Below, in pieces: positions 6,956 through 55,572 of a DNA stretch of 64,000 bases (positions are counted from its first letter, which is position 1; each line of letters begins with the position of its first letter). Origin of the DNA: a bacterium. GTDB taxonomy: Bacteria > Patescibacteriota > Andersenbacteria > UBA10190 > CAIZMI01. Below the pieces are notes generated by a model that was not told the origin of the DNA, did not search any database, and was given only the letters and a program-made list of their open reading frames with translations. The position numbers and the translations under genes are program-made. The stretch covers positions 129,467-193,466 of the forward strand of contig JAUSJG010000008.1 of NCBI GenBank assembly GCA_030647555.1. The letters are read 5' to 3'.

Positions 6956-7055
6956 AAGGTCGGACTTTGCGAAAAGGTCCGACCCTGTCTGGTGGCGCCG
7001 GCGACCAATGCGGGTCGGACCTTTATGAATAAAAGTCCGACCCGAGGCTCATTAT
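6956..7055. repeat. double-hairpin dispersed element (GTCGGAC-loop-GTCCGAC x2), copy 1
   Basis: aaggtcggactttgcgaaaaggtccgaccctgtctggtgg ... ccaatgcgggtcggacctttatgaataaaagtccgacccgag. It is nearly identical in layout to the 30369-30452 copy. Confidence 0.55.
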
Positions 7056-9764: not shown

Positions 9765-12128
9765 TTAGTTGGTGGGCCCGGAAGCGATAAGATCTAAAAC
9801 CAGTGGGCCGTGCTTGATGTTTAGATTTAGATCTATAAAGCCCTTGTTATTGTAACTTAATGTGTCGGCCGGAATAATAATAGATTTGTCGGCGTATTGA
9901 TTATTCTTTTCGGTTTCAAGGTTGGTTATTTCTTGGCCATTGTATTTTATTATCGCAGTTGCGCCGTTATTTTGGAGACGAATTAGCAGTTTTAGCGGTG
10001 TGTTGATTTTTTTCGTATCCGATGGATCCCAAAGTGGTTTAACGTATGTGCCCACGTTTAAGTGAATGGAACCATCGTTACTTTGAATTTCGCGCAGTGA
10101 ACGGTCGTCACGGAACAGGGGGTCGGAAATTCGCGTGGCCGTTACGGAAATCGCGGAGTAGGCTTGGGTGTCTTCGGAATCTCCCAGTTCATTGGCGATC
10201 GTTGCCGGTTGAAGAAGAAAATCGGATTCGTTGTCTTTAGGTTCGTTTGCGTCGGGGGCTTGGAATGAATAGATTGTTGTTTCGGTGTTGGTAAAAGCGG
10301 ATGTTAAATATGGGTTGTACTTGAACGTGTCGGTCGACGCGCCCACCGCTGTGCCGATAAGTTTAATGTTTTGTTTTACTAGCAAGTTTGCGATAATGGG
10401 GTTATTGCCAAGCATAAATATTTTTTCGTAATCAAGGCCTGTTTCGTACAGTTTTTTACGTAATGGCGATTGCTTGGATTCTTTTCCAATGACACCAAAA
10501 TCTCCGCCAATGCGAGTAATCATGTTAAACGGTGAAAGAATGCCCCAGGTTAGACGGCGCCGATTCCAATCATCAATGAGAAAATTTTCTTTTTTATCAG
10601 TGGTTGTTTGCTTAAGAAAAGAAAGCATGTCGAGGGTTTCTGGCGTGAGACTGGCATTTACGCGCGTGGAGTGATTTGTGGCTATCAGTTGCTGGGATGC
10701 GGAGTTGGTTTGAGTCGCAATAGCTATGGCTATTGCGAGAATGATGAATGATGAATGATGATTTATGAATACGGAACTGCCGATTTTGTTTTTACCGATT
10801 GCGATGATTTCCGATAAAAATATTCCGGCGAAAATCGAAAGTGGTAAGCAGGCGTAAAAAAGTGTGCGCGCTGAAGGAATGTCAATAAATAATTTTGAAC
10901 CCTGGCCAAGAAACAGAAAAACGAGACAAAAAGTTGCCAGCAAAACTCGGAAGATATTTTTTCTTTCTTTTGCAAAAATATATGTCACCAATAAACCGAC
11001 TAAACCAAACAGAAAAACGGTTACACCAAATGTGGAAGGATAATCCAACAGTGAAATGGTGAATGGTTTTAGATGCGGATGCAGATTAAAGAGAGCCGAT
11101 AATTTTTTGGTGAGTGGAGAAAAGAAAATAACAATAATTGCCATTGCCAAAAATAAAACAGTAATAATGGCCGAAATTTTTGGATTGTGCTTAATAAGGA
11201 CAAAAATACTTGTGCGGAAAAATATTAAGAGTGTGATTATTAATCCAAGGGCGACAAAGGTGGCGAGAAACGCGGTAAATTGGTGGACGATGGGGAGGAG
11301 AAGCAAGCAAAAAAGTGAAACTGCCAGCGGGGTGATTAGTTTTTTATAGTTATGAGTGATTTGCCATTTACTTATGGTGAATAAGAATAAAAATAACCCT
11401 GTTACTAGTAAGATTTCGCCAATTAAGTTTTGGTAATGATAGCCCGGGTAAAAAACATAACGGAGAAAGCGGATATTGGTGGAAGCAAAAAAGAACACCA
11501 GCAGTTGTGTTTTGGCGTCGGTGCTGATGAGTGCGGTGATGGCGACGCCCAGTGCGGCGAGAATAATTCCGGCCCAAAAAGAAAACCAGGCGGTTGAAAC
11601 AAATTGGTCGCCACCCGTTTTAATTACCACGGCCGTTAATGAGTGTAATCCCGGTGTAAGAAAATCTGAAGGATCGCGATTGAGGTTGAGAGAACTTTGG
11701 TAGTTGGGGAGGCGATTGTTTTGGAGAATATTGTTTGCCCAATAGATTGCTTTTTGAACATCGCCTGTTGGAAGTTGATGATGAACAGTGAAAATCGGCA
11801 GGGTGAGGAATAAAATAATCAGAACATAAAGAAACGCGAATCTTTTTTGGGGCCAAGAGATTGTTTTAATAACGACTAAGGCGTGGCGGCGATAAGGGGG
11901 GACAGCTAAACAAATAATGATTGGCAGTACTGAAAAAATGCCGATGACCGGCACGGAAAGTCCAATATGAACAAAACTGATAACAAATGAATAAAAAATT
12001 GTCCAAGCGATACCCAAACTTCCGGCGATACCAAGCAAGCCGACAAGCGGGGTTTGTTTTCGCGATAAAGCGGTGGCCAATGGCAGGCCTGGGATAAAAG
12101 CGATTAACAAAAGTGAGAGGATGGTCAT
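9765..12128 (-). CDS. large polytopic membrane protein with C-terminal extracytoplasmic domain (putative glycan polymerase/transferase-like)
   Basis: A 787-aa ORF with more than 12 TM segments in the N-terminal two thirds. It contains an embedded AATGATGA/palindrome repeat (see findings). Confidence 0.45.
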   Translation of the reverse strand: MTILSLLLIAFIPGLPLATALSRKQTPLVGLLGIAGSLGIAWTIFYSFVISFVHIGLSVPVIGIFSVLPIIICLAVPPYRRHALVVIKTISWPQKRFAFLYVLIILFLTLPIFTVHHQLPTGDVQKAIYWANNILQNNRLPNYQSSLNLNRDPSDFLTPGLHSLTAVVIKTGGDQFVSTAWFSFWAGIILAALGVAITALISTDAKTQLLVFFFASTNIRFLRYVFYPGYHYQNLIGEILLVTGLFLFLFTISKWQITHNYKKLITPLAVSLFCLLLLPIVHQFTAFLATFVALGLIITLLIFFRTSIFVLIKHNPKISAIITVLFLAMAIIVIFFSPLTKKLSALFNLHPHLKPFTISLLDYPSTFGVTVFLFGLVGLLVTYIFAKERKNIFRVLLATFCLVFLFLGQGSKLFIDIPSARTLFYACLPLSIFAGIFLSEIIAIGKNKIGSSVFINHHSSFIILAIAIAIATQTNSASQQLIATNHSTRVNASLTPETLDMLSFLKQTTTDKKENFLIDDWNRRRLTWGILSPFNMITRIGGDFGVIGKESKQSPLRKKLYETGLDYEKIFMLGNNPIIANLLVKQNIKLIGTAVGASTDTFKYNPYLTSAFTNTETTIYSFQAPDANEPKDNESDFLLQPATIANELGDSEDTQAYSAISVTATRISDPLFRDDRSLREIQSNDGSIHLNVGTYVKPLWDPSDTKKINTPLKLLIRLQNNGATAIIKYNGQEITNLETEKNNQYADKSIIIPADTLSYNNKGFIDLNLNIKHGPLVLDLIASGPTN
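10716..10775. repeat. perfect 26-bp palindrome plus an (AATGATGA)n motif embedded in-frame in a CDS
   Basis: gtcgcaatagctatggctattgcgagaatgatgaatgatgaatgatgatttatgaata. On the minus strand it encodes ...INHHSSFIILAIAIAIA... The same AT-rich motif is intergenic at 19056-19134, 33896-33935 and 54041-54135. Confidence 0.5.
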
Positions 12129-14711: not shown

Positions 14712-16451
14712 ATGTTCACTGAAGGAGTCCTGAATTCAGCGCGCCAATTTATTAGCACCCCGATGGGGTGGAATTATACGTCTAACGAAACGCGTGCGAT
14801 TGATCCATTTTTCACAAACCGTGATCGACGGGTGTTTTTCATGCACACGCTTCCAGCTTCGGTTGGCACGACCCTGTTGGCTATGTTTTCACGCATCAAA
14901 AACCCGCGCGGTGTGCGTGGTGTTTTTGTCGATGCGTTTTTACCGCAGTTTTTGGCGACGCAGTTAACGGACGTTGAGAAAAGTTTCGGCGGTGATGAAG
15001 CAAAATTTATTAGAGACAGAAAAATTGGGACACTGGATTCCTTTGTAAATTACTCAGAAGAAGCGAGAAATTTGTTCGAAGATTTTCTGAAACGTGGCGC
15101 ACTGGACCCGGAATATCTGAAAGTGTTGGCGCAATCCAATAAGGCGCAAAAATTCTTAAGTGTTTGGTTGAGTGAAAAATATGGTCACAATTCCATTGCG
15201 CGTGTTGGTTCGGTCTGGCTATGTTGTGAAAAAATTTCTATCTTGGCGATCAAGACAATGGAGTGGAGTCGTCCCGGGGCAGGGTATATTGAGCTTTCTA
15301 CGCGCTATGTTGATATGTCATCGGCCGGTTGTTATCCGATTGAGAATGAATTGAAAGAAGGTTGGAAAGTGGATCCTGAAATTGTGATTTCGGCGCGCAA
15401 CGATGCTTTTGCAACATATGATGCGTTGGCCGGTGCAAACTTTGACGGGCCGTTCCCAAATTTTTTGCGGGAAAAATTTGGTTCCGCATTTTCCGCTGTT
15501 CCAAAAGATTTGGAAATGGGTGTGATCGGTGAAACATGTGACGTATTGGGCAATTTGCTTCCTTCATCTTCGTTGAGCTCTGTTGGTATGTGTTTGAGCG
15601 GGGAAGCCTTTGGTGAAGTTTTGTCACACCTATTATTGGACGTCACGCCGGAAAACATTGTTTTAGTGGAAACTATTCTTAAAGAAACCGATCAAATTGG
15701 CGTGCGCGAGTTTGCCAAATATTTTGTGCCAACAGATTGGAAGAAAACACATTGGCAATACTTGGACACGCAGAAGTTTTTGGATTTAGCCCAGGAGGAA
15801 CACACCCAGGCAAAACCCTTAGTGGGATACAATCGGTTTGCTGTCGAAACATCAATAATGGCTGCTTTGCAATTGCGTGACGGCGTGAAGGCGAGTGGTG
15901 ATTTTGCAACAGTTTTTGCTAATGCCGGAATGGGTACAGTACGCTCGCCATTTGATAAATTACCGGCGGAATTTGAATCATTTACCATGGCGATGCGTGG
16001 CATGATGACCTACCGTGGTTGGCGCGACTTGCAGCGGATGGGTTTTTGCACTCACTTGCGAACCTATGTGACAACCGATCTTGGCTACTATAAATATGAC
16101 AAAGTGGATTACTCACCACTGAAGAAAGCCTTTTTGGCTTCGGCAAAAGATGGTGTTTGGTTGGAACACGAAATGAAACGCAAGGGTGTGCCGGCAATAT
16201 TGCGACAGTATCCTTTAGCTTTGGGTTGGAATATTGGTTTTTCCGTTGCTGCCAATTTAAGGCAATGGGAATTCTGTGACTGGCAGCGTTCCAAATACAG
16301 TGTTAATCATGAAGTGCGCCAAGCATTTTTGTCCGCGGAAAATTATTTGCGTGAACTTTTGCCTTGGTGGAAAGATGTTTCGAGGGCAGACATTACTCCT
16401 GCATACATATTTGCACGGGGTAGTACGGCGATTGCTCTAGAAAACAAATGA
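14712..16451 (+). CDS. hypothetical 579-aa protein; a weak ThyX-like motif (GYIELSTRYV resembling the NELSGRY core of flavin-dependent thymidylate synthase) without the RHR triad
   Basis: A long soluble ORF. Only a local motif resemblance was seen, so the function is unassigned. Confidence 0.35.
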   Translation: MFTEGVLNSARQFISTPMGWNYTSNETRAIDPFFTNRDRRVFFMHTLPASVGTTLLAMFSRIKNPRGVRGVFVDAFLPQFLATQLTDVEKSFGGDEAKFIRDRKIGTLDSFVNYSEEARNLFEDFLKRGALDPEYLKVLAQSNKAQKFLSVWLSEKYGHNSIARVGSVWLCCEKISILAIKTMEWSRPGAGYIELSTRYVDMSSAGCYPIENELKEGWKVDPEIVISARNDAFATYDALAGANFDGPFPNFLREKFGSAFSAVPKDLEMGVIGETCDVLGNLLPSSSLSSVGMCLSGEAFGEVLSHLLLDVTPENIVLVETILKETDQIGVREFAKYFVPTDWKKTHWQYLDTQKFLDLAQEEHTQAKPLVGYNRFAVETSIMAALQLRDGVKASGDFATVFANAGMGTVRSPFDKLPAEFESFTMAMRGMMTYRGWRDLQRMGFCTHLRTYVTTDLGYYKYDKVDYSPLKKAFLASAKDGVWLEHEMKRKGVPAILRQYPLALGWNIGFSVAANLRQWEFCDWQRSKYSVNHEVRQAFLSAENYLRELLPWWKDVSRADITPAYIFARGSTAIALENK

Positions 16452-16624
16452 CCAATAACCAATACTCAATGACCATTGAATGACTAATTTTGCAATGACC
16501 ACTGACGTAACGCAGTAATGTAATTGGGTATTAAGTCATTGAGAATTCAGTGGGCATTGGTTATTGAGTATTGGTCATTAATGGGGTTGACTGATTTGAA
16601 TTAATATATTTTCACAAGTACAAT

Positions 16625-18627: not shown

Positions 18628-18675
18628 GACCAGGGTTGAACCTTGGACAGGTTTGTCCAAGGTTCAACCCTGGTC
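18628..18675. repeat. perfect palindrome with about 21-bp arms (accagggttgaaccttggaca / tgtccaaggttcaaccctggt)
   Basis: Read directly. It is the longest perfect dyad in the window. Confidence 0.6.
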
Positions 18676-18773
18676 GGCGTATTCCGACACAAAGCGTAAC
18701 GAAAATTATGATTATAAAAATGGCTTGTAAAAGAGCATAAAAGCACACATCGAAAAAGCGTTTGTCACAATGC

Positions 18774-18802
18774 TTGACAAAAAATAAAGGCGGGATTATA
18801 AT
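18774..18802 (+). promoter_or_regulatory. perfect-consensus sigma70 promoter TTGACA-N17-TATAAT
   Basis: ttgacaaaaaataaaggcgggattataat. Confidence 0.45.
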
Positions 18803-18808
18803 ACACCC

Positions 18809-19050
18809 TACTGAATCGACGTCTCCGCCAAGAGTTAGTTTGCTCACTTCACTCACCTCAAATAAATCAATCGTACCGAAGCCGGTTGGTTTAATCACGA
18901 GGAACAACCAAAAAATTGCGTTTAGTAGGAAGAAGGCACGGCCACTTTTTGCGAACTATTCTTTTGTTCGCCTGCCGTTATTGCCACTTTCAAACGACGT
19001 AATCATTGGTTTTGAGTGATGACGGGTTCCGTTCCGTCAGACCTTTTGAC
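18809..19050 (+). ncRNA. candidate small RNA (about 240 nt) from the 18774 promoter to a hairpin plus U-tract
   Basis: No ORF starts downstream of the predicted TSS. tgacgggttccgttccgtcagacctttt at 19019-19050 is terminator-like. Confidence 0.2.
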
Positions 19051-19055
19051 AATTT

Positions 19056-19134
19056 TCCCTTGAATGTTCGACATGATTAATGAATGATGATTTATGATTC
19101 ATGAAGTCGAATATTGAAGGGAAGGCGTGAAAAA
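19056..19134. repeat. MITE-like element: imperfect terminal inverted repeats CCCTTGAATGTTCGAC / GTCGAATATTGAAGGG flanking an AATGATGA-rich core
   Basis: ccttgaatgttcgacatgattaatgaatgatgatttatgattcatgaagtcgaatattgaaggg. Confidence 0.45.
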
Positions 19135-19852
19135 TTTCGCGCTTGAATATCCGTTCCCCTCCTTCGTTAGATCCTTTGTGATGTAGCGAAAGAGGGGAAT
19201 AAGAGTGGACTGATTACATTAGCAACATCGGCAGTGCCGAAGACCAGATAATGCAACCCAAGATCGTTGGGTTCGCTGAAAGGTCGTTGCTAACAAAATC
19301 AGCAAACAAGTTTCTTGTTTGACGATCACCACTTGAGGTTCCCGCCGTTGATTATTTCAACGGTTTCCCTCAAATTTTCGAAACAAACCAATCGGTGACC
19401 GACCCTGGCCTGCCCCGCGTAGCTTTAGCGAAGTGTGGGCGTGCAGGGACGGTCCCCGAGCTTGGAAAATTTGAGGGGAAATCCTATGGCGTAAGGGTGT
19501 GTGCCGGTTTCCGACGGGCTGTGTCCGTGAGAGAAACCGAACCCATGCGTCATTCAGCTAGGGGCAGAAAATGGCCCATCGCTTCACACCGGCCACTACC
19601 GAGTGGACCGAAAAGCAGATCATAACTCTTTGATCTGTGTGTGGGGTGAGCGCTGAAAATTTCCACTGACGAGTGGGGAGAAAGTTGGCTGGTTTGTTTG
19701 GATGGGCGAGCCCTAACTCGCGCCATTTCAACCAGTCGACATCCGGAAGTTAGGGTCCGGAAAGCAGTGATGTAAGAGGTCATTACATGCACACAATTCC
19801 GCGGTCGGCAACGAGGGACGTCCTTGTTGTCGACCGCTTTCCTTCTTAAATT

Positions 19853-20464: not shown

Positions 20465-20720
20465 CTCGCCAATCATAATAGCGCTGGAGTTTGCGGAACA
20501 AAAGCAAACTATGCTTTGTCGGAAGAGGCAAATCTTGGCAAAGCATTCCCCGAGTAACAGCGCGAATAAAATCAAGGGGAAGTTAAGCAGTCGCTCAACT
20601 GCTTATGCGCGAATAGAAGAAGGCGCATAAAAAGGAATGAGCAAAGTGTTACACAACGGGCTGAGTCTTGTTTCACAAGTTTCGGCCCAAATTCATTTCA
20701 ATCTTTGGGAATATTTTTAT

Positions 20721-20755
20721 CAGTGACCGACCCAGGCGTACTGGGACGGTCACTG
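20721..20755. promoter_or_regulatory. 15-bp-stem hairpin cagtgaccgacccag-gcgta-ctgggacggtcactg
   Basis: Imperfect dyad about 60 nt upstream of the small TM ORF at 20816. Confidence 0.35.
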
Positions 20756-20815
20756 ATAAATACTATTAAAGATTGGTGTGAATTTACCAGTTTCGAAAAC
20801 CAAAGGGAGATTGTC

Positions 20816-21443: not shown

Positions 21444-21480
21444 GTAATTATTTGGGGCAATTCATGAATTGCCCCTACGC
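21444..21480. repeat. direct-repeat copy 2 of GGGGCAATTCATGAATTGCCCCTAC, encoding the last 8 codons and the stop of the GT4 gene
   Basis: On the minus strand the repeat reads ...CELRRGNS*. Confidence 0.6.
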
Positions 21481-22556
21481 AACTCGCAAATTTCGGAAAA
21501 TTTGTCCATGTACTGTTGTGCGATTTTGGGCCATGCGAAGTTTTGCATCGTGAACTCTCTGGCTTTTTTGCCAAATTCTTTTCTTACGTTTTCGTTTTGC
21601 AGAAGCGAATTGATTTTATCGGCAAAGGCATCTGCGTTTTCCGATTCGACAAGAATGCCGTTTTGGTCGTCAATAACCGCATCGGTGATTCCTTCGAGTT
21701 TTGCGGCGATTATTGGTAACTTACAGCTCGCCGCTTCCACTGCGACCAACCCAAAACCCTCGGCGTCATTTTTCACTTCAATGTTGGGCATAATGAAAAG
21801 ATCAGCAGTGTTGTAGAGCAATTTAACTTTTTCTCTTGGTACATCGTGGAGAAAAATTACCTTGTTCTGCTGGTTTGTTTTTTTAATTGCCTGATCAATT
21901 TTTTCTTTTTCTGGACCATTGCCAATGACAACATAAATAATATTTTCGGGTAGTTTGGGTAAAACATTTGTGATGAACCATTCAACACCTTTTCTTTTTA
22001 TCAAGCGACCAACTGTCAATAGTATTCTTTTATTGGTAATTTTGGAACCCAAATATTTTTCCAGATCATCGTGTTTGATGCTTGGTTCATAAAAAACATC
22101 CTTAATTCCCGGGGTTATTACAACGGTGTTGTTTCCGGGAAATTTTTCATTGACCAAACTGGCTACGTAATTACTGATACAAATATAGAGATCGGTACCC
22201 GAAAAAAACTTTTTTAAATACCATTGGTAAATTTTCGATGGATATAAAATATCTAAACCGTGTACTTCTACCGCAACAGGTTTTCTTGTTACTTTTTTTA
22301 TCATCCAACCAATTAAACAAAGCACTGGGTCGCCAATGTGGACTACGTCATAATTTTTTGCAGTGAAAAGTCCCTGAATAGTCGCGGTCACGAAAAAAAT
22401 AGGAAGAAACTTTTTTCCGTATCGATTAGTGATAACCTTTGTTCTTGTTAGTTTTCCAACTTCCGTTGTGATGTCGTAACTTAATTGTTCCATTCCGCCA
22501 CGGATGGGCGGATAGGTGCGCGTGATAAATAGAATAGACGGCGCGTTATTCATCAT
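21462..22556 (-). CDS. glycosyltransferase family 4
   Basis: ILFITRTYPPIRGGMEQLSYDI ... ILLTVGRLIKRKGVEW ... EGFGLVAVEAASCKLPIIA are GT4 motifs. Confidence 0.7.
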   Translation of the reverse strand: MMNNAPSILFITRTYPPIRGGMEQLSYDITTEVGKLTRTKVITNRYGKKFLPIFFVTATIQGLFTAKNYDVVHIGDPVLCLIGWMIKKVTRKPVAVEVHGLDILYPSKIYQWYLKKFFSGTDLYICISNYVASLVNEKFPGNNTVVITPGIKDVFYEPSIKHDDLEKYLGSKITNKRILLTVGRLIKRKGVEWFITNVLPKLPENIIYVVIGNGPEKEKIDQAIKKTNQQNKVIFLHDVPREKVKLLYNTADLFIMPNIEVKNDAEGFGLVAVEAASCKLPIIAAKLEGITDAVIDDQNGILVESENADAFADKINSLLQNENVRKEFGKKAREFTMQNFAWPKIAQQYMDKFSEICELRRGNS

Positions 22557-22563
22557 TCGTCAA

Positions 22564-23547
22564 TCATTCTTCATTATTCTTTTTATATGTTTCTTTGCGA
22601 GCGTGGTAAAGCAGTTCTTCAATTAGAATGCGTTGACGGCGTAGCATATCAGCCAAGAGCGCGATAGTCATCAAAAAAGTTCCCAACAAAATAAAGACGG
22701 CGGAAACAGTTACCAATGAACGGTAGGGAAAAGTTTGGCCTGTTTGAAGCCAATGAATCAAAAGAAAAAGTCCGATAAGAAAACCCGTACCACCGGTTAG
22801 TGTAGCCAATACACCAAAAACCTGAAACGGGCTGGAGTCGCGCAGTGTGCGAAAAAAAATGGCGAGCCAGCGAACACCATAAATGAAAATGTTTTTAGCA
22901 ACCCGCGATTTGCCGACGGCGCGTTCGCCGCGCACTTCCAAACGAATTTCTTGAATGCGTAGTCCCTTTAGAACCGCGTCCAGAATTACTTCGTGGGTGT
23001 ATGTAAAACTGCTGAAAAGCGTAAGGCGTAAAGCCGCTTCACGACTGTATGAACGATAACCGCAGGAGACGTCGGTGAAATTTCGATCGACGGCGCGGTT
23101 AACGATGTATCGCACAATTCGGTTACCGATTTTTTTTAGCATTGGCATTTTTGGATATCTTTTTGGATCGGAAAAACGGGTGCAGGTGACAATGTCGGAT
23201 GCGCCGCTCAAGATTGGCGCGATTAGTTGCGGAATGTCGCCGGGATTGAATTGGCCGTCGCTATCGATGTGGACAATAATGTCGGCTTGCCTACGAAGCG
23301 CTTCTTGAATGCCGGTACGGAAAGCGGCGCCCACACCGCGGTTTTGGCCGTGAGAAACAACTGTCGCACCGAGTGAGCGTGATTTTGAAGCAGTGTCATC
23401 GGTTGATCCGTCATCAATCACGATAATTTCTTGTTCGTTAAAGCCGGCGATTGCTTTGGGAATTCCGTTGATGACTTGGGAAATCGTTGCCGTCTCGTTC
23501 AGGGCGGGAATAATGACGCAGAGCTTTTTTTGTTGGGTGGATAGCAT
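22564..23547 (-). CDS. GT2 polyprenol-phosphate glycosyltransferase (DPM1/GtrB-like) with C-terminal TM helices
   Basis: LCVIIPALNETATISQVINGI ... IIVIDDGSTDDT ... IVHIDSDGQ contains DXD, and the C-terminus has 2 TM helices. Confidence 0.7.
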   Translation of the reverse strand: MLSTQQKKLCVIIPALNETATISQVINGIPKAIAGFNEQEIIVIDDGSTDDTASKSRSLGATVVSHGQNRGVGAAFRTGIQEALRRQADIIVHIDSDGQFNPGDIPQLIAPILSGASDIVTCTRFSDPKRYPKMPMLKKIGNRIVRYIVNRAVDRNFTDVSCGYRSYSREAALRLTLFSSFTYTHEVILDAVLKGLRIQEIRLEVRGERAVGKSRVAKNIFIYGVRWLAIFFRTLRDSSPFQVFGVLATLTGGTGFLIGLFLLIHWLQTGQTFPYRSLVTVSAVFILLGTFLMTIALLADMLRRQRILIEELLYHARKETYKKNNEE

Positions 23548-25836: not shown

Positions 25837-25854
25837 GAATGGGAACAGGCTATC

Positions 25855-25892
25855 AGGCCGCCCATTTGGGCGAGCCTCGCCCCGATGGGCGG
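25855..25892. repeat. GC-rich dispersed repeat copy 2 (GGGCGAGCCTCGCCCCGATGGGCGGG)
   Basis: Matches the 1040-1110 copy. Confidence 0.4.
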
Positions 25893-26001
25893 GGGACAGG
25901 GTAAAGGCGAATATAAATAAAAAAAACCCGGCGCGGTTGCGACGGGGGATATGGGTGTTTGTAAATTTGAGAAATATGTCAATATCCTATACCATACTAA
26001 A

Positions 26002-29748: not shown

Positions 29749-29800
29749 AAAACCGTCCAGCGAGGGACGGGTGGGAGTCTGGTGACTGTGGAGCAAGCGC

Positions 29801-30277
29801 TTATGCGGGTTTTTGGGTTAAGGATTCGGCCAGCGAAAGAAAAGAGTTGCTCCAGACAACAGGGAGAAGCAGGTCATCCGTTTGGACGATGGTGACACCG
29901 CTGGTCTTCAAGTCGCGATACAACTTTTCTTCTTGAGGATTGATGGCAGACACGTTGATAACAACGGCAAAAGGAACATGGTTTGCAATGCAATGCAGAA
30001 TCATTGCCAGTTGCATTCCGATATTTTTCAGTTGGGCGTCAATGATATACGCTCCAAATGAAATTTTTCCAGCGAGGATCTCATCCCACGCCTGGTACGA
30101 GTTGAGTCGTGTTACGCCCTCATTGCCAGTCAGTTCCTCAAAATTCTGTTTAGCGGTGACGGACACCGCTTCCTCATCAGTTACAAGACAGATACTTACC
30201 CTAAGTAACGCATGAATGGTATTTTCAATTGCCACTGGAACCTGTTGCCGTCGAAACAAAGGGTTGCGTATGTCCAT
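29801..30277 (-). CDS. hypothetical 158-aa protein (possible Rossmann/receiver-like fold)
   Basis: No diagnostic motif was seen. Confidence 0.3.
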   Translation of the reverse strand: MDIRNPLFRRQQVPVAIENTIHALLRVSICLVTDEEAVSVTAKQNFEELTGNEGVTRLNSYQAWDEILAGKISFGAYIIDAQLKNIGMQLAMILHCIANHVPFAVVINVSAINPQEEKLYRDLKTSGVTIVQTDDLLLPVVWSNSFLSLAESLTQKPA

Positions 30278-30368
30278 GTTTTATCTCCCATGTTGGATGT
30301 TTTGGAAACGATCAAACGCCACGGCATTATAATTTAATAATAGAAAAAGTCAATATTTTTTTGGTTAC

Positions 30369-30452
30369 AAGGTCGGACTGCCGAGCGGTCCGACCTTGAT
30401 TGGTGGTAATTAAACGTCCAATGCGGGTCGGACCGCTAAGCAGTCCGACCCG
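30369..30452. repeat. double-hairpin dispersed element (GTCGGAC...GTCCGAC x2), copy 2
   Basis: aaggtcggactgccgagcggtccgaccttgattggtgg...ccaatgcgggtcggaccgctaagcagtccgacccgg. Confidence 0.55.
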
Positions 30453-30490
30453 GCCTTTAAATAAACCGAGTTTCGGATTATATTGAAAAC

Positions 30491-32518: not shown

Positions 32519-33915
32519 GCGGACTGATAGAAATAGTTCTCATTGGTGTCGGTGCGCTGGCGCTCTTTTCGGCATTATTTTTTAGTGCGCAGGCGGGAAT
32601 ATTTATTTTGGGTGGTGCTTGGGCGGTGGCTTTATCTTGGAAATATCCTAAACAGGCATTTTGGATATTGTTGTTTTTTGTACCGCTTTTGCCGTTATTG
32701 AAAATAACGCAAACTTTGAGCGCGGTAACACCACTGAAAGATTTTATCATCGCTGCGTTATTTGTTCGGGTTGTCATTTATCCGATTTATCTTAAGCGGG
32801 ACCCGTATCGTCGTAATAATGTGCTATTGCCAATAATTTTTCTTGTTTGTTATGCGGTGCTGGCCGTATTGCGCGCGGATAGTCACGTGCTTGGTATACT
32901 TCGTTTAAGAGATATATTACTTTATATTCCAATGCTTTGGATTGGTCGCGCAATGATTGTGACGCGGAAGGATTTTACTGATTTTCTGAAAATTATTTTC
33001 GGTAGTGTGGGGCTGGTTTTGGTTCTTGCGTTGGCGCAATTTATATTTTTTACAGATGGAATGGTGTTGCGGTTTGATCCTTCGGACAGTTCCTGGATTA
33101 CCAGAGCATCAAGTGTTTTGGCACACCCAAATATTTTAGGCAGTTATTTGTTGTGTTTCCTGCCACTTACATTTTCTTTTTCGTTATTTAAATTTAAACC
33201 TGGCTGGAAATCAAAGATTGTGCTTTTGTTAAGTATTTTTGGCTTGATTACGGTTTACGCCACATATTCGCGTGGCGTTTGGATCGCCTTTATTGTCGGG
33301 GCTTTGTCTGCGGGCGTTTTGGTTGTATATCAAAAACGACAGTTATTTTATAAAGTTGTGTTGCCGATAATTTTAGTCGTTCTAATTTTGTTTCTTGCGA
33401 TTCCCCGTACGCGCAATCTCTTACGGACAGTTGTGGATCCAACATACGCCAGCAATCAGGCTCGAATTGGAATTATGGCATCATTGGTTTCAGAAATGTC
33501 TAATGTAGACGCGCTTTTGGGGCGTGGTTTAGGTGATATTTTTGAAAGTACAGATCGAAACATCAATATCTCAATTTCCGATATTGTTGCTAATAATGTG
33601 CAGAGTGTACAAACAGCAAAGGCACAGACTTTTGTGGATGATGCCGTGTTCAAGACCTGGATTGAAACAGGACTGTTTGGTCTTTTGATTGTCGGTTGGT
33701 TGGTTTGGAACATTGTCACAAATTCCTGGCGGTTAAATGTTGGGGGAAAATCGGTGGAAGAAAAATATTTTGGCATAGCGTTGTTTGCGACAACTGTTGG
33801 TTTGTTTGTATTGTCATTTTTTCTAGATATTCCGGAAACTTTTCCGGTGGCATTGTATTGGTGGACGTTGGTGGGAGTGGGGCAGGCGGTGCCGTGCTTA
33901 AAGAATGATGAATAA
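32482..33915 (+). CDS. O-antigen ligase / Wzy-like polymerase family membrane protein
   Basis: A polytopic ORF with ...VYATYSRGVWIAFIVGAL... in a periplasmic loop, typical of the O-antigen-ligase family. The 5' 37 nt overlap the previous gene, so the true start is uncertain. Confidence 0.5.
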   Translation: MAQAVGKKFNKVGGLIEIVLIGVGALALFSALFFSAQAGIFILGGAWAVALSWKYPKQAFWILLFFVPLLPLLKITQTLSAVTPLKDFIIAALFVRVVIYPIYLKRDPYRRNNVLLPIIFLVCYAVLAVLRADSHVLGILRLRDILLYIPMLWIGRAMIVTRKDFTDFLKIIFGSVGLVLVLALAQFIFFTDGMVLRFDPSDSSWITRASSVLAHPNILGSYLLCFLPLTFSFSLFKFKPGWKSKIVLLLSIFGLITVYATYSRGVWIAFIVGALSAGVLVVYQKRQLFYKVVLPIILVVLILFLAIPRTRNLLRTVVDPTYASNQARIGIMASLVSEMSNVDALLGRGLGDIFESTDRNINISISDIVANNVQSVQTAKAQTFVDDAVFKTWIETGLFGLLIVGWLVWNIVTNSWRLNVGGKSVEEKYFGIALFATTVGLFVLSFFLDIPETFPVALYWWTLVGVGQAVPCLKNDE

Positions 33916-33935
33916 TGATTATTGAATGATGAATA
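33896..33935. repeat. AATGATGA-family AT-rich repeat (gaatgatgaataatgattattgaatgatgaatactcg) at a gene end
   Basis: It overlaps the stop codon of the ligase-like gene (…LKNDE*). Confidence 0.35.
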
Positions 33936-34022: not shown

Positions 34023-35018
34023 GTGGCTAAATATAGAACAGAACATCAAATGAAAGCCCATATCCAAATTGTTGGTTGGAATCATTACCATTACATCGGT
34101 ACGTGTATTTTGTCGTGTCAAAAACAGACCGTTTCGGTACCGATTATTTATATTGATAATGATTCAAAAGACGAGTCGGTGGCATATATTAGAAAGAATT
34201 ATCCGGATGTTGTGATTGTTGAAAACAAGGAAAATCGTGGGTATGCCGGTGGTCACAATGATGGTTTTAAAGTAATTAGCGACTCGGAAGTGGTTATCTG
34301 TCTTAATCCGGACGTTGTTCTGGAAAAAGATTTTGTCGAAAAAATATTGCAAAAATTTGAATCAGAAGGAAAAGTGGGTGCGGTGGTTCCGCTCTTGTTC
34401 CGCGGAAAATCGCGGGACAAGGAAGGCAAGATGCGAATTGTTGTTGATTCCTACGGGACAAGGTTACGAAAAAATTTGAATGTGGAAAATATTTTGGAAG
34501 GAGAGTTTTGGGAGGAAACTACTGCTAATCAGGGTCCGACCCTGTCTGCAGGGACGGACCCTGGCGCAACTAATTCGTTGCCACAACCTTGGGGTTTTAC
34601 GGGTGCGGCGGTGGCTTTTTCCAGAAATGCGATTAACGACCTGAAAGACGAAAAAGGAAATTTTTTTGATGAGGATTTGCATTCCTACCGCGAGGATGTG
34701 GATATATCATGGCGTTTGAATCGAAAGGGCTGGAAAATTGTGGGTGCGTCGGATGTGCGGGCTTGGCACGCGCGCGTGGCGCGCAAAGGCGAAATGAAAT
34801 CGGCAAATATTGTTCGCCTGTCGTGGCGGAACTATTTTCTGGTTGTTATTAAAAATGTCTCCACAGAAATGATTAAAAAGAACTGGTTTCCGTTCGGCGT
34901 GCAGATATTGGCGCGTATTGGTCAGTTTGTGGTTACGCCACAACTCTGGGGCGGTTTGGTGACGTTTTTAGGGCTTATTCCTTTATTTCTCAAGAAGCGC
35001 AAACGGGCGTTAATATAG
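34023..35018 (+). CDS. glycosyltransferase family 2 (carrying an in-frame repeat insertion)
   Basis: IIYIDNDSKDES ... ICLNPD, plus a C-terminal amphipathic/TM segment. Confidence 0.6.
   Translation: MAKYRTEHQMKAHIQIVGWNHYHYIGTCILSCQKQTVSVPIIYIDNDSKDESVAYIRKNYPDVVIVENKENRGYAGGHNDGFKVISDSEVVICLNPDVVLEKDFVEKILQKFESEGKVGAVVPLLFRGKSRDKEGKMRIVVDSYGTRLRKNLNVENILEGEFWEETTANQGPTLSAGTDPGATNSLPQPWGFTGAAVAFSRNAINDLKDEKGNFFDEDLHSYREDVDISWRLNRKGWKIVGASDVRAWHARVARKGEMKSANIVRLSWRNYFLVVIKNVSTEMIKKNWFPFGVQILARIGQFVVTPQLWGGLVTFLGLIPLFLKKRKRALI
34531..34564. repeat. intragenic inverted-repeat copy of the GTCCGAC element (cagggtccgaccctg tctg cagggacggaccctgg), in frame within the GT2 CDS
   Basis: It encodes ...NQGPTLSAGTDPGA... 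The 16-mer ggtccgaccctgtctg is shared with the intergenic copy at 6975. Confidence 0.5.
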
Positions 35019-39225: not shown

Positions 39226-39330
39226 ATTTTCAATTTTCAATTTTCAATTTTCAAAAAATTATCAATTACATAATTATCAATTACATAATTATCAATTACA
39301 TAATTATCAATAACATAATTATCAATAACG
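39226..39330. repeat. AT-rich tandem repeats: (TTTTCAA)x4 then (ATTACATAATTATCA)x3 plus (ATAACATAATTATCA)x2
   Basis: Read directly. An inverted TTGATAATT / AATTATCAA partner lies at 39338-39385. Confidence 0.6.
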
Positions 39331-39426
39331 ACGTCATTTGATAATTTATGATTTGAAAATTAATTGAAAATTGGTCATTGATAATTGAAATTTATTGTAT
39401 TCGGTGATTCAGTTCTATGTGCTATT

Positions 39427-40536
39427 ATGAAAAAAATAGCAATGAAAAAAACGCCTGATCTAATTTTGTTACTCGCCATCATCGCCCTTGTCTCCTTGGG
39501 CAGTTTAATGTTGGTGTCCGCATCATCTGTATTGGGGTTGGACTTGCACAATGATCCTTATTTCTTTGTTCGTCATCAATTGTATTACGGGATATTGCCC
39601 GGTTTGTTTTTACTTATTGTCACGATGTTTGTTCCATATACGTTTTGGCGACGTGCCGTTGTGCCAATTTTGGTTGGGGTGGTTATTCTTCTCTTGATGG
39701 TCTTTGTACCCCAGTTTCAGATGTCTTATGGTGGAGCGTCACGTTGGGTGCGTTTGGGTTTTATCTCCGTTCAACCTGCCGAATTTGCCAAACTCGCGGT
39801 TATTCTTTATTTGGCGGCATTGTTTTCCAGTCGTGAAGAGAAACATGGTCATGTGCATGATACACTGATTCCATTTTTAATTGTTGTTGGGCTGATTGGT
39901 TTTCTCATTATTAAACAACCGGATATAGGTACATTGGTGGTGGTTACTAGCGCGTCCTTGATTATTTATTATCTTGCCGGGGCAAGCTGGAAGCATCTTT
40001 GGATGGTGATTGGTGGTGGATTAGGGACTTTGATTGTTTTAATTCGTCTTGCGCCATATCGCATGGCGCGTTTTACCACCTTTCTTCATCCCGAGTTGGA
40101 TCCAAAGGGGATTGGCTACCAAGTCCACCAAGCATTGCTGGCAGTAGGGTCGGGTGGAATTTGGGGATTAGGCTTTGGAAGAAGTCGACAAAAGTTTCGT
40201 TATCTGCCGGAACCGGCGGGTGATTCAATCTTTGCCATTGCTTCCGAAGAATTGGGATTTTTGCGGATTAGTATCTTGTTGAGTCTGTATATTTTTATTA
40301 TTATTCGGGGTTATCAAATTGCGCGTAAGGCGCCGGATATGTTTAGTAAATTAGTGGCCGGCGGAATTACATCTTGGTTTTTTGTGCAAGCAGTTGTGCA
40401 CATTGGGGCGAATCTTTCGATCTTTCCCTTAACTGGCATTCCGTTACCACTCGTTTCTTATGGAGGATCGGCGATTGTGATAACGCTTGTGGGAGCGGGG
40501 ATACTGCTGAATATCTCACGATATTCGAACGATTAA
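39427..40536 (+). CDS. ftsW: SEDS-family peptidoglycan glycosyltransferase (FtsW/RodA)
   Basis: A polytopic ORF with the C-terminal ...PLTGIPLPLVSYGGSA... signature. Its position between mraY and murG supports ftsW. The start was trimmed to MKKIAMKK. Confidence 0.7.
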   Translation: MKKIAMKKTPDLILLLAIIALVSLGSLMLVSASSVLGLDLHNDPYFFVRHQLYYGILPGLFLLIVTMFVPYTFWRRAVVPILVGVVILLLMVFVPQFQMSYGGASRWVRLGFISVQPAEFAKLAVILYLAALFSSREEKHGHVHDTLIPFLIVVGLIGFLIIKQPDIGTLVVVTSASLIIYYLAGASWKHLWMVIGGGLGTLIVLIRLAPYRMARFTTFLHPELDPKGIGYQVHQALLAVGSGGIWGLGFGRSRQKFRYLPEPAGDSIFAIASEELGFLRISILLSLYIFIIIRGYQIARKAPDMFSKLVAGGITSWFFVQAVVHIGANLSIFPLTGIPLPLVSYGGSAIVITLVGAGILLNISRYSND

Positions 40537-40539
40537 TTT

Positions 40540-40690
40540 GAAATTTACAGTTTTTAATTTGAAATCAATTTGAAATAATTAAATTTGAAATATCTAAAAC
40601 AGCGTTTTCAAATTAAAATATTAAGTTATTTCAAATTGATTAAAAATTTCAAATTTCAAATTAAAAATTAAGGGTTGGTTTTATGGCATA
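40540..40690. repeat. AT-rich inverted array: (ATTTGAAAT)x5 opposed to (ATTTCAAAT)x4 around a central ctaaaacagcgtttt
   Basis: Read directly. It lies in the intergenic region between ftsW and murG. Confidence 0.55.
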
Positions 40691-41936: not shown

Positions 41937-42033
41937 CAAAGTCCGTCTTTGCGCCTGCCGGCCATAGCCTTGGCGACGGCTGGAGGCGTTTCAACGCCGA
42001 AGCAATCTCCCGTGGCGTGCTATAATATGCCAG

Positions 42034-42109
42034 TCGTGGGCATGCCAAGGTTGGGAGTTCAGGATTATCACCCAGATCTCGGGGGTTCGATTCCCCTCGT
42101 GTCCACGAT
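42034..42109 (+). other. tRNA-like fragment: canonical T-arm GGGGGTTCGATTCCCCT plus an 8-bp terminal pairing, but no complete cloverleaf
   Basis: The T-arm is at 42081-42097. gtcgtgg (42034-42040) pairs with ccacgat (42103-42109). No D-arm or anticodon arm could be built. caggattatcaccc (42058-42071) is complementary to ggtgataatcctg (42189-42201). Confidence 0.25.
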
Positions 42110-42371: not shown

Positions 42372-42790
42372 TTAAATTAAAAAGCCAAAGCTCTGTACAC
42401 GATAAATCGCGCATAGCGCTTTGGCGAACAGGAGAGACCCATCCTTCGCTCATGAATGAGCTACGGAGGGCAAGGCGGATCGCAATTTCCACAATTGAAT
42501 AGACGAAGGGATTATGAGCAACAGCGACCTGGGCAAATATACCAGTAGTTCTCATAATCATCCTTTAAAAAGAGCACGGGGTTCTTCGGCGGCCCCTCCC
42601 TTTCGACAAAGGGAGGCCGGGAGGGATTCCGCGCTTCCGTCACTGCACATACTCCTGGCTCAAATTTATTTTATGCCGTATGCAGTATGCGCAGTGACGG
42701 GAAAAAATACCGGTGCTGTCCCGGTTAAATCTGTTTCGGTCGCGCATGACAGTAGCGACCAGTCGTCATAATCCGAAAAGGAAAAGACTC
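42372..42790 (+). ncRNA. candidate highly structured leader / ncRNA (about 420 nt)
   Basis: It carries four perfect hairpins in series: agccaaagc...gctttggcg, gattatgag...ctcataatc, cctccctttcgacaaagggagg and gtcactgcacatac...gtatgcgcagtgac. The 85-aa ORF track call at 42514 is low-complexity. Confidence 0.3.
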
Positions 42791-43083: not shown

Positions 43084-43150
43084 ATCGCGTCTCGGTCTTC
43101 CTCCCATCAATGCCTAGTACACCGGCCTAAATTTATTTATTGCCGTTTTG
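43084..43150 (+). promoter_or_regulatory. conserved upstream element copy 1: inverted repeat CAATGCCTAGTACA...TGTACGAGGCATTG around CCGGCCTAAATTTATTTATTGCCG
   Basis: It is about 62 bp and nearly identical to 53081-53146. Confidence 0.55.
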
Positions 43151-53026: not shown

Positions 53027-53080
53027 TAAGGTTCATCGGAAACAGTTCGGTGGGTCTTAACGAAAGAACAAAATCTTTTC

Positions 53081-53146
53081 CATCAATGCCTAGTACACCG
53101 GCCTAAATTTATTTATTGCCGACAGTTGTACGAGGCATTGACGGGA
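53081..53146 (+). promoter_or_regulatory. conserved upstream inverted-repeat element copy 2
   Basis: catcaatgcctagtacaccggcctaaatttatttattgccgacagttgtacgaggcattgacggga. Confidence 0.55.
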
Positions 53147-53624: not shown

Positions 53625-53689
53625 GAGCCCATCAATTTTTGGTGGTCTGTAATTAAAGTATATGTATAGATATATTGATACAATAAAAA

Positions 53690-53736
53690 CGGAGATTGCT
53701 TCGCCTCGCTGTTGCGATGGCTCGCAAAGACTGCGT
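53690..53736. repeat. short dispersed repeat CGGAGATTGCTTCG-N17-CTCGCAAAGAC, intergenic copy
   Basis: The copy at 54889-54933 shares both ends and lies inside murC. Confidence 0.45.
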
Positions 53737-53769
53737 TACACAGTCGCTAAAAGGCTATTGAGTCTAAAA

Positions 53770-54046
53770 ATCCCCCGTCGCTACCTCCTTCGCTAAAGCT
53801 TCGGAGGTCAAGAAAGCTTCGGGGGACGCAGTGAGAATCAGACCCTGGGAGGTCGGTTACGATCCGCCCGCCCATTTTAATAAATGGGCGAGGTTCAATT
53901 TTCTCTCCTGACCGTGTCGCCTAAAAAGCACGCGGGAATCAAACAGGCACCTCGGTCCGTATCATTTCTCACTGCGCCCACCGTAGCTCATCAGAGCGAA
54001 GGAGGGTTAACGACTCGATAGCCTTTTGGCGGTTTTTTTGTGCGTG
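53770..54046 (+). ncRNA. candidate structured leader / attenuator RNA upstream of murC (about 280 nt, ending in an intrinsic terminator)
   Basis: There are long-range pairings: cgtcgctacctccttcgct with agcgaaggagggttaacgac, and gacgcagtgagaa with ttctcactgcg. The terminal gccttttggc + GGTTTTTTT hairpin lies about 100 nt before the murC ATG. Confidence 0.3.
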
Positions 54047-54135
54047 AATGATGAATTATGATATATGATTTATGAATATCGACGGTTAGTTTCTCATAAA
54101 TCATCATTCATAAATCATTATTCATTTTGTGAATG
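54041..54135. repeat. AATGATGA-family AT-rich inverted repeat (gtgaatgatgaattatgat...atcatcattcataaatcattattcat)
   Basis: Read directly. Related copies at 10741, 19075 and 33896. Confidence 0.4.
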
Positions 54136-54153: not shown

Positions 54154-55572
54154 ATGAATCAAACTTTCAAATCAGGTACAAAAGTGTATTGTTTAGGCGT
54201 TGGTGGTATCGGTCTTTCCGGTGTGGCACAGTGGATGAAAGAATTGGGTTGTGAAGTAAAAGGTTCCGATCGTGCAGTGTCATCTGTGACGCAAATGCTG
54301 GAAACCAAAGGTGTTTTAACAAAAATTGAAGAAGTGACAGAAAGTGTGCCGGAGAATACGGATATTGTTGTCTATTCCGACGCCTTACCATTTGAACATC
54401 CAGCCCGTGTTTTTGCTCGCGCGAAGGGAATCCGCGAAATGAATTACGCGCAATGTTTGGGGTTGTTGACGGAAGGGTATCGGTGTATTGCCGTTGCGGG
54501 AAGTCACGGCAAATCTACCACCACCGCGCTCATTGCCCACATCTTAACGGAGGCTGGTTTAGATCCCACTGTTGTTGTTGGAACAAAAGTTCCGACGCTG
54601 GGGAATGTAAATTTTCGTTTCGGGAGAAGCGATATTGTAGTGGTTGAGGCCGATGAATTTCGGAGCCATTTTCTGGAGCTTTCTCCAACGGTCGCAATTA
54701 TCAATAATATCGATCACGATCATGTCGATGTTTTTCCGACAATAGAATCTTATGTTGATGCTTTTAAAAAATTTGTTGTAAAAATAAAAGTTGGTGGGGA
54801 ACTTATATTGAATGTACACGATTCATATACTGAGAAATTGGCAGGGGAACGGGACGATATAAATGTAACTTTTTTTGAAAAGCGCGACGCGGAGATTGCT
54901 TCGGCTAGCCTGCGGGCAGCCTCGCAAAGACGGAATTATGTTGTTGATTTTCAAAAATATGACAACGGTCGGCAGTATTTTTCGGTGTCAAAAAATAATG
55001 TTTCGATGGGTGATTTTAATATTGCATTTCCAGGCGACCACATGTTGCTGGATGCTGTAGCTGCGATTGCGGCCGCAGTTCCTTTTCTGGATGATCTGGA
55101 AAAAATTCGTAACGCCATGGCCACTTTTCGTGGTACGTGGCGGCGTTTTGAGTTACTCGGAAAATATAAAAGTGCGACGGTGATTTCTGATTACGCGCAT
55201 CATCCAACAGAGGTGAAGGCGTTACTGCGTGGGACTCGACAGGCCTATCCAAATAAAAAAATTGTCATCGTTTTTCAACCCCATCAGAGCTCAAGAACAC
55301 AGGCATTTGGCAATGATTTTATTGAAGCGCTATCGCTGGCCGACGAAGTCCTTTTGGTTGAAGTATTTAGTGTTGCCGGACGAGATAATCCAAAAGATTT
55401 TTCCACTGATCGACATTGGGTTGAGGTCTTAAAACAGCGGGGCAAGGAGGCCTATTACGCTGAAGACTTGTTTGTGGCGGAGAAAATGTTGCGTGAAACA
55501 GAACCGACGGATGAGATTTTGTTGTTCGTGGGGGCGGGATCTATCGATCAATTGGCGCGGAAAATGGTCTAA
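54154..55572 (+). CDS. murC: UDP-N-acetylmuramate--L-alanine ligase
   Basis: The N-terminus has VYCLGVGGIGLSGVAQWMKELGCEVKGSD. The Mur-ligase P-loop AVAGSHGKSTTTALIA is present. Confidence 0.8.
   Translation: MNQTFKSGTKVYCLGVGGIGLSGVAQWMKELGCEVKGSDRAVSSVTQMLETKGVLTKIEEVTESVPENTDIVVYSDALPFEHPARVFARAKGIREMNYAQCLGLLTEGYRCIAVAGSHGKSTTTALIAHILTEAGLDPTVVVGTKVPTLGNVNFRFGRSDIVVVEADEFRSHFLELSPTVAIINNIDHDHVDVFPTIESYVDAFKKFVVKIKVGGELILNVHDSYTEKLAGERDDINVTFFEKRDAEIASASLRAASQRRNYVVDFQKYDNGRQYFSVSKNNVSMGDFNIAFPGDHMLLDAVAAIAAAVPFLDDLEKIRNAMATFRGTWRRFELLGKYKSATVISDYAHHPTEVKALLRGTRQAYPNKKIVIVFQPHQSSRTQAFGNDFIEALSLADEVLLVEVFSVAGRDNPKDFSTDRHWVEVLKQRGKEAYYAEDLFVAEKMLRETEPTDEILLFVGAGSIDQLARKMV
54889..54933. repeat. 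in-frame copy of the CGGAGATTGCTTCG...CTCGCAAAGAC repeat inside murC
   Basis: It encodes ...AEIASASLRAASQRR... in a segment that looks like an insertion between Mur-ligase domains. Confidence 0.45.

Follow-up and report, generated by a model that had tools for sequence, protein, structure and literature searches.

Genomic setting

We analyzed a 64-kb stretch of contig JAUSJG010000008.1 (hereafter, the window), from a genome of the candidate phyla radiation (CPR), for short hairpin repeats that lie between genes and, in-frame, within the genes for a family 2 glycosyltransferase (GT2) and for MurC. The window is a cell-envelope gene region encoding GT2 and GT4 glycosyltransferases, Wzy, flippases, MraY, FtsW, MurG, MurC, and MurB, and the nearest relatives of its proteins are annotated as Parcubacteria or Patescibacteria. 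Coding sequence accounts for 80% of the window, and the GC content is about 42%, with the exception of a 10-kb island at 52-58% GC. Identical copies of the GT2 and of a membrane protein discussed below are encoded on a 257,598-bp contig of an NCBI metagenome-assembled genome (MAG); the GT2 is also present in Logan, where an assembly encodes an identical MurC (462 aa, start called later). Because independent assemblies carry identical proteins, the GT2 and murC inserts are not assembly artifacts, and that source was excluded. Unless another source is named, copy counts given below for the repeat families refer to the window.

A hairpin-bearing insert in the GT2 gene

The GT2 gene, its insert, and the hairpin within the insert were delineated as follows:

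34023..35018, plus strand: GT2 glycosyltransferase gene, host of the insert (Pfam PF00535, E = 2.4e-17; GT-A fold)
34519..34569, plus strand: in-frame insert of 51 nt, 17 codons, TTANQGPTLSAGTDPGA, amino acids 166-182 (codon alignment with L001)
34530..34563, plus strand: core hairpin of the insert, with a stem of 14 bp, a single A·A mismatch, and a 4-nt loop (folding, motif matches)

The relative L001 (JGI Ga0129283_10001767) is syntenic with the window over eleven genes, and its GT2 is 80% identical to that of the window. In the codon alignment, the window gene carries exactly 51 extra nucleotides after GAG GAA; most of the neighboring ortholog pairs are equal in length and lack internal indels of 3 aa or more. 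The segment is thus, on the evidence of the alignment, a true insertion relative to L001, as the original prediction had proposed. The insert is also present in P0002 (QGPTLIAGTVP), and P0003/L001 lacks it. The P0002 hairpin, predicted from the protein sequence alone as CAGGGACCGACCCTG...CAGGGACGGTCCCTG, would contain a compensatory pair change, seen as a D-to-V replacement in the protein. A metagenome scan for relatives of this GT2 yielded one close match, L130 (P0006), without the insert; the other matches were GT2s of about 30% identity.

The sequence of the hairpin core is CAGGGTCCGACCCTG-TCTG-CAGGGACGGACCCTG (folded as DNA, dG = -20.5 kcal/mol, z = -5.4). In the AlphaFold2 (AF2) model of the GT2, which adopts the GT-A fold with an overall predicted local distance difference test (pLDDT) score of 89.7, pLDDT falls below 50 at residues 167-170 and 176-183 and elsewhere only at the N-terminal residues 1-5. 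Because of these low values, the insert is modeled as a disordered loop.

Hairpins related to the GT2 insert

Within the window, the GT2 hairpin has two sets of relatives, the nested double hairpins of family (i) and a group of sibling hairpins, all unstranded:

6958..7044: family (i) nested double hairpin, intergenic between convergent genes (DNA fold -30.4 kcal/mol, z = -7.05)
30371..30450: family (i) nested double hairpin, intergenic (fold -33.6 kcal/mol, z = -7.05), within a segment of about 0.7 kb missing from L001
20716..20760: hairpin ATCAGTGACCGACCCAG-GCGTA-CTGGGACGGTCACTGAT in a non-coding region, the nearest sibling of that in GT2, with which it shares the A·A mismatch (motif search, fold)
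19394..19457: sibling hairpin inside a conserved non-coding region; its loop contains a nested insert, about 31 nt long, that is not in L007
6374..6416: 20-bp perfect hairpin ATCAGGGGTCGTCCC...GGGACGACCCCTGAT, intergenic, with the ATCAGGG/CCCTGAT ends of the GT2 hairpin (hairpin scan)

Against an expectation of 0.29, the window contains five copies of the 9-mer GGTCCGACC, of which the two family (i) elements account for four and the GT2 gene for one. The top match of the GT2 core in the window, at 6976-6991, is identical at 16/16 nt. These matches and the alignment with L001 bear out the claim that the GT2 gene carries, in-frame, a GTCCGAC element with intergenic kin. The alternative is chance similarity, that is, variable-loop sequence or low-complexity indels that happen to resemble intergenic repeats. 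By our estimate, about one exact 16-mer repeat per 64 kb is expected post hoc. However, none of 300 shuffles reached the observed match, the secondary matches of the GT2 core all fall within the same element family, and the gapped pattern CCGACCCWG-N3-30-CWGGGACGG has two matches in the window (GT2 and 20727-20749) against none expected. Chance is refuted for the GT2 and, as detailed below, for murC, and we consider it very improbable as a general account of these inserts.

The siblings at 20716-20760 and 19394-19457, which were not part of the original prediction, are nearer to the GT2 hairpin in structure. All three share an ATC(A/G)G flank and an asymmetric CCGACCC/GGGACGG core that produces the same A·A mismatch, and their outer stems differ through compensatory changes. 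In L007, the counterpart of the 19394-19457 hairpin, GGTGACCGACCCTG-GCGTG-CAGGGACGGTCCCC, contains no nested insertion. L007 also lacks the 6958-7044 element from the same intergenic slot, where it carries other repeats, including a GATTCCTGC...GCAGGAATGAC element.

Two open reading frames (ORFs) beside the family (i) elements were considered as element-borne genes and rejected. The 158-aa ORF next to the 30369 element has no Pfam match; the 115-aa ORF next to the 6956 element has none either and is conserved in L007, which lacks the element. The former belongs to the segment at 29750-30465 (about 0.7 kb) that is missing from the syntenic L001, where the two flanking genes sit 30 nt apart; besides this minus-strand ORF and the family (i) element, the segment contains a terminator-like hairpin. 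The 19.4-kb hairpin, for its part, lies in a region of about 0.9 kb (18763-19700) that is 79-82% identical to positions 2224-3558 of L007 and has no conserved ORF or Rfam match. A conserved promoter-like CTTGACA...GGGATTATA motif is located near 18740-18790, and the region may be a large non-coding RNA.

A second element family in murC

The second in-frame element, in murC, belongs to a different family, denoted (ii). The relevant features are:

54154..55572, plus strand: murC gene (Pfam Mur_ligase, Mur_ligase_M, and Mur_ligase_C domains; PDB homologs)
54889..54933, plus strand: family (ii) element in-frame in murC, AEIASASLRAASQRR, amino acids 246-260 (ortholog alignment)
53690..53733, plus strand: intergenic copy of family (ii), located upstream of murC on the 5' edge of a non-coding region that is structured and conserved; part of a 124-nt run identical to L004
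41940..42012, minus strand: third family (ii) copy, intergenic, directly after murG, with two inner hairpins and an exact 5' end
18628..18675, unstranded: 22-bp perfect hairpin with AGGGTTGAACC/GGTTCAACCCT, the core of which is found in the murC-site palindrome of L005

The murC element has the layout GAGATTGCTTCG–hairpin–CTCGCAAAGAC and is about 45 nt long. Its ends, a 12-mer and an 11-mer, are repeated exactly and with equal spacing in the intergenic copy (53692/53721, compared to 54892/54921 in murC), in agreement with the predicted pairing of the two copies; this match, together with the same element in the GT2 gene of a relative (see below), excludes chance for murC. The copy at 41940-42012, which the original prediction did not include, has a degenerate 3' end (CGCAAAGAC).

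Orthologs 76-81% identical to the window MurC (L004, L006, and P0064) have, at this position in murC, element ends identical to those of the window but wholly different inner hairpins (GTCGCC-CCGAT-GGCGAC in L006 and TCGCCAATTT-CAAA-AAATTGGCGA in L004). In L005 (80% identity), the site is occupied by an unrelated perfect palindrome, AATTAGGGTTGAACC-CCTTAGT-GGTTCAACCCTAATT; an 11-mer match to the hairpin at 18628-18675 is suggestive of kinship between the two, and only that. Among murC orthologs at or below 59% identity, the motif is absent, and the solved MurC structure 9ir5 is shorter by about 14 residues at the insert site. In the AF2 model of MurC (overall pLDDT 91.9), only residues 247-257 score below 50; they are in the turn that connects strand 237-243 to strand 260-270. 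Both inserts thus fall in low-confidence loops of the structure models.

Family (ii) is also found in the GT2 loop. In L002 (P0004, 66% identity), the loop that carries the 51-nt insert in the window is filled by two opposed family (ii) copies, SSLRGARAPKQS...GEIASLRSQR, and a further copy, the third in this gene, is located at amino acids 108-119. Because different elements occupy the same loops in different relatives, the GT2 and murC loops are hot, permissive sites with turnover of elements.

Upstream of murC, the plus-strand interval 53686-54040 is a non-coding region of about 350 nt with a closing stem GGCTATTGAGTC/GACTCGATAGCC, a terminator-like tail, and a strong RNA fold (z = -8.5). 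Its core is kept in L004 (85-400) and L006 (1-60), with variable hairpin modules, and has no Rfam match; the GC-rich hairpin blocks in it are specific to the window. A run of 124 nt at its 5' side (53643-53766) is identical to L004, compared to 78% identity in coding DNA. This region is probably an uncharacterized structured RNA.

Spread of family (ii) beyond the window

A scan of one genome per species identified the pattern GATTGCTTCG-N4-34-CTCGCAAAGAC at at least 120 loci, against a chance expectation that we estimate at about 8 (596 Gb, two strands, 31 spacings, 21 specified bases). The matches listed come from Alpha-, Beta-, Gamma-, and Deltaproteobacteria, Bacteroidota, Chloroflexota, Firmicutes, Planctomycetes, Nitrospirota, Cloacimonadota, Omnitrophota, and CPR. 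Among these matches, the ends are invariant; at the center, there is either a short segment of the CTNCG or TCGCTTCGCTC type or a perfect hairpin of arbitrary sequence. Opposed dimers were found in-frame in two further proteins, in the linker of a glutamyl-tRNA synthetase (GluRS) and in the C-terminal domain of a Type ISP enzyme:

L121, Flavobacterium sp. MAG, CAZIMW010000036.1: GATTGCTTCG...CTCGCAAAGAC dimer in glutamyl-tRNA synthetase, peptide VFARETKQS...KIASSHTPRKD
L120, Chitinophagales MAG, JANXQO010000001.1: dimer in a Type ISP restriction-modification enzyme, peptide SLRGTEQSNEQSSDEAIS...KIASLQPNTKPSAPRKD

Searching the literature for the sequence itself (GTCATTGCGAG and similar strings) yielded primers only.

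This distribution bears on a possible local origin of the inserts that would need no transposase, through template switching or gene conversion with neighboring copies as donors, in other words, through quasipalindrome or hairpin-templated repair in place of transposition. The murC copy is only 1.2 kb from the intergenic copy, the inner hairpin of murC in L004 (CCTCGC...GCGATGG) matches this upstream copy with an expanded loop, and nesting of hairpins within hairpins and the lack of a transposase among the window ORFs scanned point in the same direction. There is also a precedent in the CGTC-type repetitive extragenic palindromes (REPs), which have no dedicated transposase (Di Nocera et al., PMC3733652). 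However, the GT2 insert is 13-28 kb away from its related hairpins, and family (ii) is present across phyla with invariant ends, which suggests conserved recognition machinery. We regard a purely local origin as doubtful.

A membrane protein without a palindromic insert

The original prediction included a third family (iii), with a palindrome inserted in-frame in a membrane protein. Only one feature at this site is extra sequence:

10755..10775, minus strand: low-complexity indel of 21 nt, SVFINHH, the sole extra sequence at the claimed family (iii) site (ortholog alignment)

The segment 10734-10771 is 87% identical to 54041-54078 over 38 nt. However, the supposed palindrome, GCAATAGCTATGGCTATTGC, encodes AIAIAIA, a hydrophobic and presumably membrane-spanning segment, which is present in all orthologs under other codons. 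The extra sequence relative to L007 and P0183 amounts to the seven codons SVFINHH, and L008 has the same indel with a sequence that is not repeat-like. An inserted dispersed palindrome was therefore rejected in favor of a conserved helix with a 7-codon low-complexity indel, and, judging from these alignments, the similarity to the intergenic copy would reflect low-complexity resemblance or slippage. Here, chance is the best reading. Thus, of three families proposed to have in-frame coding copies, the two represented in GT2 and murC stand, and the one in the membrane protein does not.

Spread of hairpins or selection on nucleic acids

Using a threshold of at least 11 bp with at most one mismatch, we identified 17 strong hairpins in the window, 15 of which are in non-coding DNA and two in genes (binomial p = 3e-9). 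The coding inserts are present or absent between close orthologs, resemble intergenic copies, keep the reading frame, and are placed in loops. Element turnover is fast: the 6956 slot, the slot upstream of murC, and the 30369 segment all differ among relatives. RNA-like regions were hit as well: window-specific hairpin modules are present both in the loop of the 19.4-kb hairpin and in the structured region preceding murC. We consider it probable that this genome harbors several REP-type families of hairpin repeats, mostly intergenic, a few copies of which landed in coding loops.

Under this scenario, the repeats, GC-rich relative to the 42% GC genome, would persist nearly always between genes or in non-coding RNA-like regions. 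Coding copies would be tolerated because they are a multiple of three in length, are free of stop codons when read in the frame of the host gene, and are situated in permissive loops, probably at the protein surface. Each insert would add about 15-17 disordered residues, and the encoded peptides are probably passengers without a function of their own. Spread could proceed via single-stranded hairpin intermediates, driven by a trans-acting enzyme encoded outside the window (an HUH/RAYT-like transposase, where RAYT stands for REP-associated tyrosine transposase, or another enzyme) or, alternatively, by copy-templated repair or gene conversion from nearby copies.

Several observations weigh against this interpretation. 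No transposase or RAYT domain was detected in the 38 window ORFs, a subset of the total, that were scanned with Pfam. Copy numbers in 64 kb are small, with 2+3 GT2-related hairpins and three copies of family (ii). The flanks of the GT2 insert show no clear target-site duplication or terminal tag in the alignment with L001, the bordering CTAAT being too short to count as such a duplication, and the length of the murC loop varies in all relatives, so that exact insertion boundaries are undefined. Furthermore, the ends of family (ii) are identical across murC lineages in which third-position identity is only 0.50-0.66, a pattern consistent with repeated re-insertion, with gene conversion, or with selection on the nucleic acid; jointly with the 124-nt block identical to L004 that includes the 53690 copy, it could reflect nucleic-acid selection rather than selfish spread.

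If so, the hairpins would be functional cis-acting DNA or RNA elements under selection, with the peptide incidental, for example, signals for pausing or for mRNA stability, or binding sites of a protein specific to the A·A-mismatch hairpin or to the GATTGCTTCG/CTCGCAAAGAC ends. In addition to the identical ends and the 124-nt block, retention of the A·A mismatch in three hairpins with compensatory changes in the outer stem, and the presence of both the 19.4-kb hairpin and the 53690 copy in non-coding regions that are conserved and strongly structured, are compatible with such roles. We give them some weight but consider them quite unlikely, given that close relatives differ in whether they carry the GT2 insert (L001 does not), that unrelated elements or wholly different inner hairpins fill the same loop across lineages, and that the slot upstream of murC is occupied by a different, unrelated hairpin element in each of the window, L004, and L006. 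Rfam searches produced nothing at gathering thresholds and, at relaxed thresholds, only chance-level microRNA matches within the non-coding regions.

Comparison with known palindromic repeats

Rickettsia palindromic elements (RPEs) are palindromic repeats that are found both between genes and in-frame in housekeeping genes, with the host proteins remaining intact and the inserts accommodated by the protein fold (Ogata et al. 2000, summarized in PMC10969869 and PMC3733652). Classic RPEs are about 100-150 bp long and form families specific to an alpha-proteobacterial genus (PMC10969869, PMC3733652). The window repeats resemble RPEs in occurring both in intergenic DNA and in-frame in ORFs and in that the GT2 and MurC inserts are structurally tolerated in loops, with the fold preserved (as judged from the models and from the solved MurC without the segment). 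In size and host they differ, the window elements being 34-51 nt long and residing in a CPR bacterium. The predicted RPE-like behavior accordingly stands with regard to dispersed in-frame hairpins and fails with regard to size, which is that of REPs. The GT2 and murC inserts work like RPEs or intragenic REPs, yet they are not RPEs by size or lineage.

REPs of 20-40 nt are mostly intergenic, with a minority wholly inside ORFs, in many species (Di Nocera, De Gregorio & Rocco 2013, PMC3733652). According to the same survey, which did not include CPR genomes, a single intragenic REP codes for about 7-10 aa and an opposed dimer for 15-30 aa, and the same gene can be struck at about the same site in different species. 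RPE-4 and RPE-6 were equated there with CGTC REPs, which have no known transposase, whereas the RAYT (Y1/HUH) transposase is linked to GTAG-type REPs only (PMC3733652). This literature, and the occurrence of the murC element type across many phyla, in-frame in GluRS and the Type ISP enzyme, contradict the view that such insertions are unusual outside Rickettsia.

Hairpins in the window have a strongly intergenic distribution. CGTC families have a stem of 8-9 bp that opens with A-T pairs, a 4-5-nt loop, and, at one end, an unpaired CGTC (TGTC/CCTC) tag (PMC3733652). Two of the three family (ii) copies in the window, those in murC and at 41940, begin with CGTC on the reverse complement, and the 53690 copy begins with AGTC; the description of CGTC-1/dRS3 is fitted by the GATTCCTGC...GCAGGAATGAC elements of L004 and L007. 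Family (ii) itself differs in having a 4-bp TTGC/GCAA closing stem, unpaired conserved TTCG/CTC, and a freely variable inner hairpin, and no family (ii)-type peptides are present in the supplementary table of the Di Nocera survey. Because the 8-9-bp stem is lacking and these peptides are missing from the table, we classify family (ii), by its sequence features, as CGTC-REP-like and not as a member of the CGTC REPs. The GT2 hairpin has neither a GTAG nor a CGTC tag.

Bacterial MITEs (miniature transposable elements with inverted repeats), such as Coxiella QMITE1, ERIC/RU, and BOX, are non-autonomous inverted-repeat elements that occasionally occur in-frame in genes; they are 70-300 bp long, with terminal inverted repeats of 15-30 bp and target-site duplications (PMC10969869, PMC5896051, PMC2759123). 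The window repeats share the inverted-repeat structure and the occasional in-frame occurrence. MITE size is approached only by the 80-90-nt intergenic family (i) elements, which fold as whole-element inverted repeats; no duplication was seen.

Other repeats and islands in the window

Two perfect 42-nt direct repeats, CCATCAATGCCTAGTACACCGGCCTAAATTTATTTATTGCCG, at 43104-43145 and 53080-53121, with a 67% copy at 42637, bracket an island of about 10 kb (43.1-53.1 kb) at 52-58% GC. Genes for MoxR-type AAA, VWA, and AAA/Csx3-like proteins are located on this island, which interrupts the dcw cluster between murG and murC and, with its att-like ends, resembles a mobile or defense island that has integrated here. 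Between murG and the island, at 42038-42108 on the plus strand, there is a tRNA-like element with a T-arm and an acceptor 3' end. Its sole match in Rfam, under the gathering threshold at 26 bits and E = 2e-8, is to the tRNA-like domain of the tmRNA model. The element was not called by ARAGORN and may be a remnant or an integration target.

Long, internally periodic, AT-rich inverted repeats and a 15-nt tandem array (AATTATCAATTACAT x4-5) were observed in intergenic DNA at 40528-40676, 16447-16579, 54045-54124, and 39257-39331, and similar but non-homologous AT-rich hairpins occupy the same slots in relatives (L006, 60-207). A AATGATGA-type repeat at 22547-22582 spans the start codon of a GT4 gene (21462-22556) and the stop codon of the upstream GT2 gene (22564-23547); another, at 33898-33935, covers the final codons and the stop of the Wzy gene. 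Two additional small families of GC-rich hairpins, GCGAGCCTCGCCCCGATGGGCGG (1063-1104, 25854-25894, and 60243-60268) and GAATCCCTCCC...AAAGGGAGG (1763-1802 and 42590-42629), are confined to DNA outside called genes. GC skew is positive in every 2-kb bin (0.05-0.26), independent of gene orientation, so the entire 64 kb is probably on one replichore.

Implications

A full-text literature search retrieved no report of RPE- or REP-type inserts in coding sequences of CPR, and the inserts described here extend the concept of selfish DNA in coding sequence to this radiation. They point to rapid turnover of elements in genomes usually viewed as streamlined and pinpoint permissive loops in two cell-envelope enzymes. 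The same GT2 or MurC loop, empty or filled with different hairpins in genomes that are 75-80% identical, provides natural experiments. For CPR proteins, the odd peptides (EIAS...SQR, SLRG...KQS, and QGPTLSAGT) can lead alignment, ortholog assignment, and annotation astray. The wide spread of family (ii), with invariant ends and a free core, bears on what mobilizes CGTC-type REPs.

A bolder proposal, which we advance tentatively and rate as rather unlikely, is that small hairpin modules in this CPR lineage colonize the loops of GT2 and MurC, structured non-coding RNAs, and other hairpins alike, and that GATTGCTTCG–variable hairpin–CTCGCAA(A/T)GAC constitutes a REP class that crosses phyla. Such a class, with invariant ends and no known mobilizing enzyme, is not described in the literature searched. 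If this proposal is correct, insertion would have to proceed by a mechanism directed at hairpin tips or single-stranded loops, and a CPR genome of about 1 Mb would be a tractable place to find the mobilizing enzyme.

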